Position numbers and translations under genes: made by a program
Virus record (IMG/VR): IMGVR_UViG_2778261504_000023
Span: 1-40,045 of that record
Source: a virus
Lineage: Duplodnaviria; Heunggongvirae; Uroviricota; Caudoviricetes
Length of the DNA: 40,045 nucleotides
Direction: 5' to 3' (one strand)
Notes under the pieces: generated by a model
Seen by the model: only the letters and a program-made list of their open reading frames with translations
The model's database searches: none
What the model was told of the DNA's origin: nothing
Shown: piece by piece, positions 8,050 to 36,897 of the stretch
Numbering within the stretch: position 1 is the first letter of the stretch
Layout of the letters: each line of letters begins with the position of its first letter

Positions 8050-8111
8050 TTACCTTGAGGGTAATAAAATGTTCTAATTTCTATTGATTTCATATCTTAT
8101 GTGGTTTTTAA
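8050..8111 (+). promoter_or_regulatory. Putative promoter module: palindrome TTACCTTGAGGGTAA plus downstream TATGTGGTTTTTAA
   Basis: Palindrome 8050..8064; 14-mer TATGTGGTTTTTAA 8098..8111 identical to copy at 33612..33625; upstream of gene at 8130. Confidence 0.5.
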
Positions 8112-8129
8112 TTACCTCAGGAGTAAATC

Positions 8130-8474
8130 ATGAGAAAGCAGATACAGGCTCTTGGTCGACTCAAAACAGGCCAGATGAACAAAACAGAATCTGCGTATTG
8201 CCAGCACCTTGAGCAGCGTAAACGTGCAGGGGAAATCGCCTGGTATCGATTCGAGGGTATCAAGCTGCGGTTAGCTGACAACACGTTCTATACGCCCGAT
8301 TTTGCTGTGATGCTCTCCACCGGAGAGATGGAACTGCACGAAGTGAAAGGTTTCTGGACCGACGACGCCAGGGTGAAAACCAAAGTCGCCGCAGATCAGT
8401 ATCCGTTCCGAATCATCGGGGTAACGGTTAAACCAAAGAAAGCAGGTGGTGGCTGGAACATCGAAGAGTTCTGA
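8130..8474 (+). CDS. Hypothetical protein, possibly DUF1064-type nuclease-like
   Basis: 114 aa; pattern YCQHLEQRKRAGEI..YTPDF.V....E..LHEVKG reminiscent of DUF1064 / PD-(D/E)XK-like phage proteins; assignment from memory only. Confidence 0.45.
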   Translation: MRKQIQALGRLKTGQMNKTESAYCQHLEQRKRAGEIAWYRFEGIKLRLADNTFYTPDFAVMLSTGEMELHEVKGFWTDDARVKTKVAADQYPFRIIGVTVKPKKAGGGWNIEEF

Positions 8475-8535
8475 ATCGACGATCTTTTTAGTTATCAATG
8501 TAATCAATAAGTTATGTGGATAAGCGAGGGTAAAG

Positions 8536-9114
8536 ATGGACGGTAATATCAAAGGGTTAGTTTCCGCCGGGCATGAGATGGCTTCTGAACTGAAAGCAGA
8601 ATGTGGTGCCGTTGATATGCGCAGTGTGGCAAAGCTGATCAGCGATTTGGCAACGCAACTGGAAGTGCAACTGGTGCGTGCTAATGCGCTGGCCGAAGAC
8701 CAGCAGAAAGCGATTGATTCAATTAAGCAGGCTGATTCGGCTGTTAAGTTGGCACACGAGAAGTTTTCAGAGATGGCGGCGGAGAATGCTGGGCTGAAGG
8801 CTGCGCACCCTCAACCATTCGGACCTGAGATGATGAAGGCTCTTGATGCGTATGAGAAGCATCAGGATGAAGTGCCGGAGACTGGAATGCTTGATGCATT
8901 TTTCATCTTGCGCGACAGCATCCGTGTTGAAACACCAGCCACCGATGCTTTCCTGGCTGAAGTACGGGCGCAGGCGTTTGATGACCTTTGCGCGGCGTTC
9001 GTTAAGCACGCGTCGGTGTCCGGGCTGGACGATGGCGACTGCGTTACGGTGAAAGAGGCGACTGACGCCCTGCTGCATTGTGCGGAACAGCTTCACAAGG
9101 GAGTGCATTCATGA
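8536..9114 (+). CDS. Hypothetical phage protein (Ead/Ea22-like region)
   Basis: 192 aa; SD GAGGG before ATG; no catalytic motif recognised. Confidence 0.45.
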   Translation: MDGNIKGLVSAGHEMASELKAECGAVDMRSVAKLISDLATQLEVQLVRANALAEDQQKAIDSIKQADSAVKLAHEKFSEMAAENAGLKAAHPQPFGPEMMKALDAYEKHQDEVPETGMLDAFFILRDSIRVETPATDAFLAEVRAQAFDDLCAAFVKHASVSGLDDGDCVTVKEATDALLHCAEQLHKGVHS

Positions 9115-9350
9115 GCAACCTACTACCATGTCCATTCTGTGGCGGTGCAGCGCACGTTGCCAGCGAAGCAGATCACCCTGAATATGGCTCTGGCGGTCGA
9201 TTCTATTTCGTTCGATGCGGTACGTGTCGCGCTCAATCTGGTAGCAAATATGCAGCGCCTGGAAATGACTGCGCGATTTTTTATTCAGAGGTTAGAGCAG
9301 AGTGGAATCAGCGAGCAAAGGAGGCAAACAGTGAGTGTATATCTTATTGA
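9111..9350 (+). CDS. Lar-family restriction alleviation protein
   Basis: 79 aa; CPFCGG ... C..C signature of Lar family; ATG overlaps upstream stop (ATGA); SD AAGGGAG. Confidence 0.65.
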   Translation: MSNLLPCPFCGGAAHVASEADHPEYGSGGRFYFVRCGTCRAQSGSKYAAPGNDCAIFYSEVRAEWNQRAKEANSECISY

Positions 9351-9630
9351 TAAACGTCGACGTGGGCAACAAATACCACCTGTAGGAATTCCGAATCACA
9401 CATGGTTTTGCGTACTTGATATCGATGGTATGGATGCGTTGGTTGACACTCGTCATTACTGCGATACCGCAACAGCTACTCCGGCGAAAGCAAAGAAAAT
9501 GGCTGCTCTGATAGAAAACTGGACTCCACCTGATGGTTGGTGCAATGGGAATGATCGAGATTGGCACGAAAAAATGAAGGGCTATATCTGCGATTTTTTA
9601 CGTAAATGCAACGGCTTCAGGGTGATGTGA
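9331..9630 (+). CDS. Hypothetical protein (99 aa)
   Basis: GTG at 9331 preceded by AGGAGG; longer ORF (9139) would overlap lar in another frame. Confidence 0.4.
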   Translation: MSVYLIDKRRRGQQIPPVGIPNHTWFCVLDIDGMDALVDTRHYCDTATATPAKAKKMAALIENWTPPDGWCNGNDRDWHEKMKGYICDFLRKCNGFRVM

Positions 9631-9631
9631 T

Positions 9632-36312: not shown

Positions 36313-36319
36313 TAAAAAA

Positions 36320-36339
36320 GAGAGGGAAATATCCCTCTC
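36320..36339 (-). terminator. Hairpin terminator (effective mainly for minus strand) between tail fibre and gtr remnant
   Basis: GAGAGGG-aaatat-CCCTCTC; run of A on plus strand upstream (U-run on minus). Confidence 0.55.
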
Positions 36340-36344
36340 TTACA

Positions 36345-36452
36345 TTAAATTACTTTATATGACTTCAATTCTTCGAATTCACGTACCGTTTTATAAAAAA
36401 TTGGTATCGCTTCTTCTTCATTGAAGACAGGAACTACAAGAGATATCTTCAT
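36345..36452 (-). pseudogene. gtrB: Truncated gtrB (bactoprenol glucosyltransferase) remnant, 35 codons
   Basis: [35 protein letters not shown] then stop; matches N-terminus of GtrB glycosyltransferases (recalled); ATG overlaps gtrA stop (ATGA). Confidence 0.6.
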
Positions 36453-36811
36453 TTCGCATCCCTAAAGACAATGAACTTTGAATAGACGAAACCGCACACC
36501 AGGCTTATGGCGGAGAAGGTGACGAGAGTAACAAATGGTGGCAGACCGCACATGTCAGCAGCCCAGCCAACAACTGCGCTCATAGTGCCCATGAATCCAA
36601 CGTAAAGCATGTATTTCAGCGTAGTAGTAGAGGCATTGAACGTAAATTTCGCGTTAGCGTAAAAACTGAACGATACAGCTATGACAAAACCAGCAAAGTT
36701 AGCAAGTACTTGATTTGTATGTATTACGTAAATACAGAAAGCAAACACAACCCAGTGTATGAGCGTGTTTAACACTCCGATTGACATGTATTTAGTGAAC
36801 AGATGAAGCAC
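36449..36811 (-). CDS. gtrA: GtrA-family flippase (bactoprenol-linked glucose translocase)
   Basis: 120 aa from GTG 36811; (M)[28 protein letters not shown]...[22 protein letters not shown]...[11 protein letters not shown] matches GtrA. Confidence 0.8.
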
Positions 36812-36839
36812 TTTTTCCAGAAAAAATAAAAACAAATAT

Positions 36840-36897
36840 ATCACCCTTTGGGTAATTTCGTTAAGAGCTATCTGAGTTTATTTAAACCATATATGGT
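36840..36897 (+). promoter_or_regulatory. Putative lysis-operon promoter module: variant palindrome ACACCCTTTGGGTAA plus CATATATGGTTT
   Basis: Half-site variant CACC at 36840..36854; TATATGG motif at 36888..36894. Confidence 0.4.

Follow-up and report, generated by a model that had tools for sequence, protein, structure and literature searches.

A conserved inverted repeat as candidate core of three late promoters in an epsilon15/phiV10-type temperate phage

The stretch of viral DNA analysed here, called the window, is 40,045 nt long (IMG/VR record IMGVR_UViG_2778261504_000023, positions 1 to 40,045) and by its sequence belongs to a temperate phage of the epsilon15/phiV10 type (Uetakevirus) with a Rep/Ant/LexA lysogeny switch. 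Its portal, tailspike, and lysis operons are each preceded by a strong copy of a 14-bp imperfect inverted repeat, named IR2, which ends 7–10 bp upstream of a TAnnAT hexamer. We lean towards the reading that IR2 is the upstream core of three activator-dependent late promoters that have no -35 element and are overlaid by direct repression by the phage repressor Rep. A first-pass annotation had reported the right half of IR2 as a repeated motif located 31–43 bp to the right of TTACC-N5-GGTAA palindromes, and had taken the motif for a -10-like element and the palindromes for class I activator sites. The features of the three late promoters are as follows (PWM, position weight matrix).

36841–36855: predicted Rep operator TCACCCTTTGGGTAA, 29 nt upstream of the lysis IR2
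36885–36898, plus strand: IR2 of the lysis promoter, AACCATATATGGTT, a perfect inverted repeat (0 mismatches) that includes TATATGGTTT (36890–36899); PWM score 24.7
36906–36911, plus strand: putative -10 TATGAT, 7 nt after the lysis IR2
33566–33580: predicted Rep operator TTACCCGAAAGGTAA, between the divergent ant and tailspike promoters, 26 nt upstream of IR2
33607–33620, plus strand: IR2 of the tailspike promoter, ATCCATATGTGGTT, which includes the second copy of the 14-mer of the first-pass annotation (33612–33625); PWM score 24.3
33626–33636, plus strand: GGTAATAGAAT, an invariant GGTAA half-site and then the putative -10 TAGAAT (33631–33636)
14786–14800: predicted Rep operator TTACCTGAAAGGTAA, 38 nt upstream of the portal IR2
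14839–14852, plus strand: IR2 of the portal/head operon promoter, AATCATATGTGGTT, which includes TATGTGGTT; PWM score 23.3
14858–14866, plus strand: GGTAATAAT, a GGTAA half-site with the candidate -10 (TAATAA or AATAAT)

The arms of IR2 are AACCA-N4-TGGTT, its core is CATATnTGGTT, and the consensus A(A/T)CCATAT(A/G)TGGTT is followed by a T-rich stretch. Two perfect copies, at 36885 and 6148, led to recognition of the repeat; those of the tailspike and portal promoters are one base off each, in the left arm. A PWM was trained on four Salmonella/Enterobacter relatives only (epsilon15, PAT1, Tyrion, and SPC32H), with the window and other Escherichia phages excluded. In the window it gave scores of 24.7 (36885), 24.3 (33607), and 23.3 (14839), and a score of 23 was reached by none of 500 shuffles. 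The next sites are at 8093 (16.4, equalled by 10% of shuffles), at 6145/6148, and at 33228. Three strong IR2 sites per genome were found at orthologous places in all seven complete genomes examined, and seven annotated relatives as well as over 100 viral contigs keep the repeat.

The exact 14-mer TATGTGGTTTTTAA reported in the first-pass annotation was confirmed at 8098–8111 and 33612–33625, and TATGTGGTT at 14844–14852. The lysis copy TATATGGTTT had been placed at 36888–36897 and lies 2 nt further to the right, at 36890–36899. The spacing holds, as the copies begin 33, 43, 31, and 34 nt past the end of a TTACC-N5-GGTAA palindrome. Identity of the 14-mer as such is unremarkable: the window has nine exact 14-mer repeat pairs against a shuffle mean of 4.4 (maximum 13), and with up to three mismatches the 14-mer has five matches against 3.6 expected. 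It was rejected as evidence, as chance yields such repeats in 40 kb. What is significant about the motif is its position after palindromes and its conservation. Five of ten plus-strand matches to TAT.TGGTT sit 25–50 nt after a palindrome (P < 5e-5 under a uniform null and P = 2e-4 under a null restricted to AT-rich sequence).

In anchored alignments, the majority fraction is 0.88–0.98 for IR2 and 0.86–1.0 for IR2 together with about 20 nt downstream. At the tailspike and lysis promoters, the sequence that separates palindrome and IR2 is less conserved (0.64–0.71) but constant in length. A scan with a degenerate pattern for portal-type copies gave the same conservation picture. The portal block from IR2 to +20 is 98–100% conserved in seven phages. 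All of 61 unique regions upstream of the tailspike gene keep the palindrome at fixed spacing, the element AT.CATAT.tGGTT, and the GGTAATA-TAnAAT block (GGTAATAGAAT in the window), where the hexamer varies only as TA[G/C/T/A]AAT, a variation that reads as the signature of a sigma-70 -10 element. For the lysis promoter, 80 viral-contig loci were retrieved with the first lysis protein. IR2 is present with at most one mismatch in 63 of them, and the hexamer always follows 7 nt downstream, with TATAAT, CATAAT, CATGAT, and CGTAAT as variants and an invariant T at the last position.

The T at position -7 of a sigma-70 -10 element is near-invariant. All hexamers inside the motif itself (CATATR and TATRTG) are without it, which speaks against the -10-like role first assigned to the motif, and proper TAnnAT hexamers, varying at tolerant positions in the typical way, sit 7–10 nt downstream. 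A putative -10 hexamer is present (TATGAT, TAGAAT, and TAATAAT) and a -35 hexamer absent at the three late sites. A sigma-70 consensus scan returned no plus-strand match at any of them, though PL and a PR candidate were found by it, and no -35-like hexamer is conserved at the three late promoters.

The palindrome is missing before the lysis operon in 34 of the 80 relatives, where IR2 and the -10 are kept. Phage phiv142-3 is among these palindrome-free loci, though its Rep is 99% identical to that of the window. Presence of the palindrome at the lysis loci tracks a divergent leftward upstream gene (Fisher p = 4e-4). From these comparisons, the palindrome is neither required by the lysis promoter nor part of its core, and activation from the palindrome, as proposed in the first-pass annotation, is therefore unsupported. 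As the palindrome is absent in these 34 relatives, their lysis promoter should be silent in lysogens by other means, which fits activator dependence.

Assignment of the element to the epsilon15 type rests on the nucleotide identity of its relatives together with the Rep and Ant matches and the LexA box. The features of its immunity region and antirepressor locus are listed here (SPC32H is a Salmonella podophage).

5103–5687, minus strand: Rep repressor gene, full-length match to SPC32H Rep (PDB 5D50_A, E = 3.5e-42, residues 1–190)
5743–5757, 5760–5774 (2 mismatches), and 5791–5805: three predicted Rep operators at OR, between rep and the cro-like gene
33232–33489, minus strand: Ant antirepressor gene, match to PDB 5D50_E (E = 1.4e-46), about 88% identical to SPC32H Ant
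33511–33526: near-consensus LexA box CTGTATATTTATACAG in the promoter region of ant, the ATG of which follows downstream at 33489

Phages phiv142-3, vB_EcoP_PAS61, vB_EcoP_ZX5, TL-2011b, and phiV10 (phiV10-like Escherichia podophages) are 95–98% identical to the window and Salmonella phage epsilon15 about 77%, taken over the aligned parts of 7.3- and 24-kb query stretches. Rep has an N-terminal YdaS-like helix-turn-helix (HTH) at residues 21–61 and a second domain, HTH_3, at residues 106–147; the latter lies in C-terminal sequence aligned with fragment 5D4Z of SPC32H Rep. The LexA box CTGTATATTTATACAG covers the likely -10 (TACTGT) of the ant promoter, and induction presumably runs from LexA through Ant to Rep rather than by RecA-mediated cleavage of Rep. 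A LexA box in the ant promoter is said to be a defining feature of the SPC32H switch as described by Kim and Ryu in 2013. The Cro-like protein (5842–6072, plus strand) is 76% conserved between the window phage and epsilon15 and Rep only 43%; the operator sequence is identical in the two phages despite the divergence of Rep. No late-operon relative with another immunity type was seen among the true viral-contig matches and the Klebsiella prophage examined, all of which have a Rep-type immunity gene or the same palindrome; a relative of that kind would have served to separate Rep from IR2.

The palindromes are more probably operators of this SPC32H-type tetrameric Rep, with TTACC-N5-GGTAA as its predicted binding sequence. 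Twelve sites with at most one mismatch are present in the window against 0.53 expected (0/100 shuffles), and TTACC-N5-GGTAA ranks top (z = 14) when all 5-mer dyads are enumerated. SPC32H Rep binds palindromic DNA as a tetramer (PMC9638917). In the GenBank record of epsilon15 (AY150271.2), the orthologous palindromes are entered as protein_bind 'repressor; lysogeny' before terS, the portal operon, the tailspike gene, and the post-replication block, and at OL, these annotations being predictions; the site orthologous to TTACCCGAAAGGTAA is among those annotated as repressor-binding. Three operators at OR and two at PL lie over core promoters. In late intergenic regions, the palindromes overlap leftward promoter elements, namely in the portal region, in the ant promoter region, at 33228–33200, and in the lysis region. 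The portal operator TTACCTGAAAGGTAA overlaps the -10/+1 of a likely leftward promoter (TTGACA 14822–14817, 17 nt, TACCTT), the minus-strand TTGACA of which is conserved in seven phages.

A terminator and the start codon of terS enclose two more adjacent predicted Rep operators (11626–11658, 18 bp apart), the second of which overlaps the ribosome-binding site. The terS-terL operon has no IR2, and no convincing -35 is present at these operators; terS-terL may be transcribed by read-through or from a -10-only AACAAT promoter.

Weaker IR2 copies were identified outside the three late promoters, together with further operators.

8084–8126, plus strand: putative post-replication promoter, composed of -35 TTGATT (8084–8089), 3 nt, IR2 (8093–8106), -10-like TTTAAT (8107–8112), and a proximal predicted Rep operator (8112–8126)
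8050–8064: distal predicted Rep operator for the post-replication promoter; its centre is 62 bp away from that of the operator at 8112
4988–5001, minus strand: weak IR2 in the spacer of PL (TTGACA 5010–5005, 17 nt, AATTAT 4987–4982)
5031–5045 and 4967–4982: predicted operators flanking PL, the latter an N6 variant
6148–6161, plus strand: perfect IR2 AACCAAATCTGGTT downstream of the terminator of the cro-like gene; its orthologues score 16–22
6128–6142: degenerate predicted Rep operator near the IR2 at 6148
33228–33241, plus strand: IR2-like AATCTTATCTGGTT, 27 nt after the predicted operator at 33186–33200

Grouping of the first 14-mer copy (8098) with the late copies into one class, as in the first-pass annotation, did not hold. 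The weak IR2 of the post-replication promoter (TATCTTATGTGGTT, PWM score 16.4, P about 0.1), in a region that includes this copy, sits within a 17-bp promoter spacer; the promoter has a good -35 (TTGATT), and its -10/+1 is covered by a second palindrome. A strict sigma-70 scan misses this promoter because TTTAAT has no A at position 2. PL is a mirrored build of the post-replication promoter, and the PL operators of phiV10 and epsilon15 have the same 62-bp pairing. The first-pass annotation had described OL and OR as lacking the motif. This is right for OR, which has no IR2, but a weak copy, overlooked there, is in the PL spacer at 4988–5001. The orthologue of the latter in Tyrion, ATCCATATATGGTT, scores 17.9 (plus strand) and 20.1 (minus strand); epsilon15 and PAT1 have no IR2 in the PL spacer. 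The PL-proximal operator at 4967–4982 reads TTACC-TTTTTA-GGTAA and was missed by the mismatch search; phiV10 has N5 there. Its ACC-N6-GGT spacing is the same as that of IR2.

Two other copies had likewise been overlooked. The perfect IR2 at 6148–6161 overlaps the upstream edge of a -35 (TTGATC, 6160–6165) that is followed after a 17-nt spacer by a putative -10 CAAAAT (6183–6188). The IR2-like AATCTTATCTGGTT abuts the -35 of a leftward promoter (TTGAAA, 17 nt, TATATT, 33228–33200), and the copy of the motif in it, at 33233, is probably just the reverse complement of the C-terminal codons of Ant (KQTR stop), so its conservation may reflect coding only.

In the mechanism that we favour, IR2 would occupy roughly -36 to -20, the zone where sigma-70 normally reads the -35. 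Early in lytic growth, a transcription factor that acts as a dimer would be produced or become active, bind IR2, and let host RNA polymerase start at late promoters that are otherwise dead. On this view, IR2 would be both a protein-binding site and an activating element. The same factor could modulate PL, the post-replication promoter, and the promoter after the cro terminator through the weaker copies. The palindromes would form a separate layer, which overlaps leftward accessory promoters and probably represses the late promoters directly in the lysogen.

Several results weigh against this mechanism. The genome-wide count of the dyad AACCA-N4-TGGTT (z = 6) is within the noise of all 5-mer dyads, so dyad counts alone do not establish IR2. 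The late start sites are deduced from sequence, and the -10 of the portal promoter is ambiguous (TAATAA or AATAAT). At the lysis promoter, a leader hairpin (z = -5.2) overlaps TATGAT with its 5' arm over the hexamer, so its start site is uncertain; the hairpin has one covarying pair (GC to AU, in a single lineage), conservation of the lysis block could be partly at the RNA level, and the start may lie upstream. IR2 has an ACC...GGT core in common with the Rep operator, and at two late promoters (portal and tailspike) the -10 directly adjoins an invariant GGTAA half-site; Rep itself might therefore touch the core region of late promoters. No IR2-binding protein was found among the candidate regulators examined. 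Those conserved in all seven genomes are Rep, the Cro-like protein, a gp40-like protein, the PHROG 536 protein, a PerC-like protein, and an AlpA-like protein (likely an excisionase); as all are conserved, profiling of presence and absence over the seven genomes did not discriminate among them. To our knowledge, none of the consensus sites of host factors (CRP, FNR, IHF, Fis, PhoP, DnaA, sigma-54, and others) fits IR2, on informal comparison.

The best-placed candidate was the 'transcriptional regulator' of PHROG 536, encoded by the last gene before terS.

11201–11539, plus strand: PHROG 536 'transcriptional regulator', 112 aa

The N-terminal part of the protein is helical and basic, and its C-terminus is rich in Cys (CxxC...CxC...C). 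It belongs to no Pfam or NCBIfam family and has no PDB sequence match, and its homologues are all named 'hypothetical'. The AlphaFold model is of low confidence (pLDDT 58) and too poor for a fold search. Homologues occur in a Q-containing Pantoea myophage and in a P2-like (Ogr) Yersinia phage, neither with an IR2 at late promoters, which also counts against the favoured mechanism; a role as IR2 binder or Lpa analogue is not supported for the PHROG 536 protein. Its 120 best homologues, from E. coli, Klebsiella, Salmonella, Citrobacter, Raoultella, and Enterobacter, are 75–98% conserved. In SPC32H and SPN1S, only residues 35–112 are found, as an open reading frame (ORF) of 79 aa.

A more far-reaching possibility, rather unlikely in our estimate, is that IR2 is the site of an uncharacterised Uetakevirus early-to-late switch protein, which would activate late and shut off early transcription and communicate with Rep tetramers. 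From the -35 zone, such a protein would turn the three late promoters on; from a spacer position at PL and at the post-replication promoter, it would turn early transcription off, and Rep tetramers would be contacted two, four, or five helical turns away. The PHROG 536 protein and the PerC-like protein are among the candidates, as is gp39, the Cro-like protein, which is unusually well conserved. If this were true, the switch protein and Rep would make up a compact two-factor program for a whole podophage genome.

A rival explanation of the same data is that IR2 is a second, weaker operator for Rep or the Cro-like protein, and the late promoters are weak constitutive -10-only promoters that are merely derepressed. 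A tetramer anchored on the palindrome, the form in which SPC32H Rep binds DNA (PMC9638917), would then reach two, four, or five turns to IR2 and the GGTAA half-site. The centre-to-centre distances between palindrome and IR2 (43.5, 40.5, 52.5, 42.5, 41.5, and 19.5 bp) are near-integral helical turns, and the spacing is held at 27–30 nt while the sequence between varies. IR2 (ACC-N6-GGT) is like the operator core (ACC-N5-GGT), and the OL-proximal operator of the window is an N6 variant; the GGTAA half-site lies against the -10 at two late promoters; and IR2 in the spacer at PL and at the post-replication promoter is in a repressor position. The outer bases of the two elements differ, however (AA...TT and TT...AA), as does the half-site spacing, by 1 bp. 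OR, the main Rep/Cro switch, is without IR2, and IR2 is kept at the 34 of 80 lysis promoters that have no palindrome to anchor a tetramer. A promoter with neither a -35 nor a TGn extension is normally very weak, and an activator is a simpler route to strong late expression. We regard this explanation as possible but clearly less probable than activation through IR2.

The model of the first-pass annotation, in which TATGTGG serves as -10-like element, transcription begins directly behind the motif, and a class I activator binds the palindrome some 50 bp upstream, is improbable. Of its shared promoter architecture, the presence at late operons in common and the fixed, helically phased distance to the palindrome stand, and with a start there the lysis mRNA would begin with the leader hairpin, which follows the motif immediately. 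In principle, activation could come from a lytic-phase protein with the same operators as Rep, such as the Cro-like protein, which is 76–100% conserved. The hexamers that it needs are nevertheless better found downstream of the motif, and with the -10s deduced there the palindromes would be centred near -70, -70, and -80, not at -50 to -60; class I sites lie at about -61.5, -71.5, or -81.5. An upstream activator site would have to be needed by its promoter and conserved with it, and the palindrome is dispensable in 34 of 80 lysis promoters, tracking the divergent leftward gene instead, and overlaps leftward promoter elements. The site is moreover of the type predicted for the lysogenic repressor. 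Rep would be on these sites in lysogens, where late genes must presumably be off and activation of lysis genes would be lethal, and by the same inference it would be absent from the on-state. The proposal of one site that represses early and activates late promoters is hard to reconcile with an operator of a repressor present in lysogens.

Least probable of all is a role at the RNA level, in which the conserved block would be a leader hairpin, an RNase III site, or a translational control in transcripts that read through from upstream, and no promoter element of the DNA. The lysis leader folds well (z = -5.2) and has its covarying pair (GC to AU), and an RNase III site in the epsilon15 record (24755–24817) covers the lysis block. 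Against this, the stem of IR2 is just 5 bp, the portal (z = -1.6) and post-replication (z = -0.2) regions fold no better than shuffles, the covariation is limited to one lineage, and terminators end the preceding operons. The three leaders have IR2 in common, not downstream structures.

The late promoters would be analogous, not homologous, to the Lpa promoters of phage P1. P1 has 11 late promoters with a common 9-bp inverted repeat bound by Lpa, and C1 operators dispersed over its genome (PMC10695390). As in P1, several late operons here have their own promoters with a sigma-70-type -10 without a -35, and a short, conserved inverted repeat precedes the -10 by a few bp: P1 LPhot has AAGTTACTT followed by 9 nt and AATAAT, the window IR2 followed by 7–10 nt and TAnnAT, a nearly identical geometry. 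A master repressor with many operators scattered over the genome and a small regulator gene upstream of the terminase genes (lpa in P1) are also shared, and the TerL of the window is PacB-like. Unlike P1, the window has no Lpa homologue (tblastn of P1 Lpa, best E = 1.4), and the repeats differ, the P1 boxes being AAGTTACTT and ATGTGACTT (9 bp) and the box here AACCATATATGGTT (14 bp). Repressor operators here also adjoin the late promoters, and activation here is deduced.

SPC32H (PDB 5D50, 5D4Z) resembles the window in its Rep and Ant homologues, in an ant gene divergent from the tailspike gene, and in its LexA box; both the palindromes and the IR2 copies of the window recur in it at orthologous places. 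The work on SPC32H concerns Rep, Ant, and LexA, and no description of IR2 or of late promoters was found in the literature searched. In epsilon15 (AY150271.2), the same TTACC-N5-GGTAA sites are annotated, the CATATnTGGTT element and late promoters are unannotated, and the RNase III site lies over the lysis copy. The palindromes and the Rep/Ant switch are already known, as are phage late promoters in which an activator box stands in for the -35. The MotA box of T4 (-30) and the site of lambda CII (-35) are examples in which a normal -10 is joined by a specific sequence in the -35 zone; unlike IR2, the MotA box is asymmetric, and CII binds direct repeats. No MotA- or CII-like activator was found in scans with Pfam, PHROG, and NCBIfam, the only means by which one was sought. 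The late-promoter core is undescribed in the GenBank annotations of phiV10, epsilon15, Tyrion, PAT1, SPC32H, and phiv142-3, and IR2 in the searchable literature, the primary epsilon15 and SPC32H papers being outside that search; the paper on vB_EcoP_ZX5 describes neither operators nor late promoters.

Phages of the epsilon15/phiV10/SPC32H type are common serotype-converting prophages of E. coli, Salmonella, Klebsiella, and Enterobacter with reporter and biocontrol uses. Their Rep/Ant/LexA switch is structurally solved; their late-gene activation is undescribed in the searchable literature. IR2 is a defined and conserved cis-element at exactly three late operons and separable from the repressor operators, so late-gene activation becomes directly testable. 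A compact and probably tightly off late promoter may be of use for engineering reporter phages. The tempting reading of a repressor operator that doubles as an activator site is corrected.

In the window, the lysis leader hairpin (36901–36946, plus strand) pairs the TATGAT block with the conserved TTATGCACAG. The same hairpin sequesters a strong Shine-Dalgarno sequence (AAGGGGG) and an ATG out of frame with the first lysis gene, which may represent a small upstream ORF or a translational control element. The leader has a 4-nt deletion relative to most relatives. GGTGA (plus-strand TCACC) is a frequent arm of the operator on the lysis side. In the leftward direction, this arm forms a TGaTAnnAT extended -10 (TGaTATATT in the window; minus strand, 36835–36864), and TAnnnT is present at this position in 15 of 28 unique relatives. 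The leftward promoter points at O-antigen-modification (moron) genes and has the predicted Rep operator in its spacer; if true, lysogenic-conversion genes would be under Rep control, which is unexpected. In the portal region, a tRNA-Arg gene (anticodon tct; 14387–14463, minus strand) overlaps the open frame 14206–14457 on the plus strand (phiV10 p04), which may be spurious. The leftward TTGACA at 14822–14817, next to the operator at 14786, could drive this tRNA-Arg.

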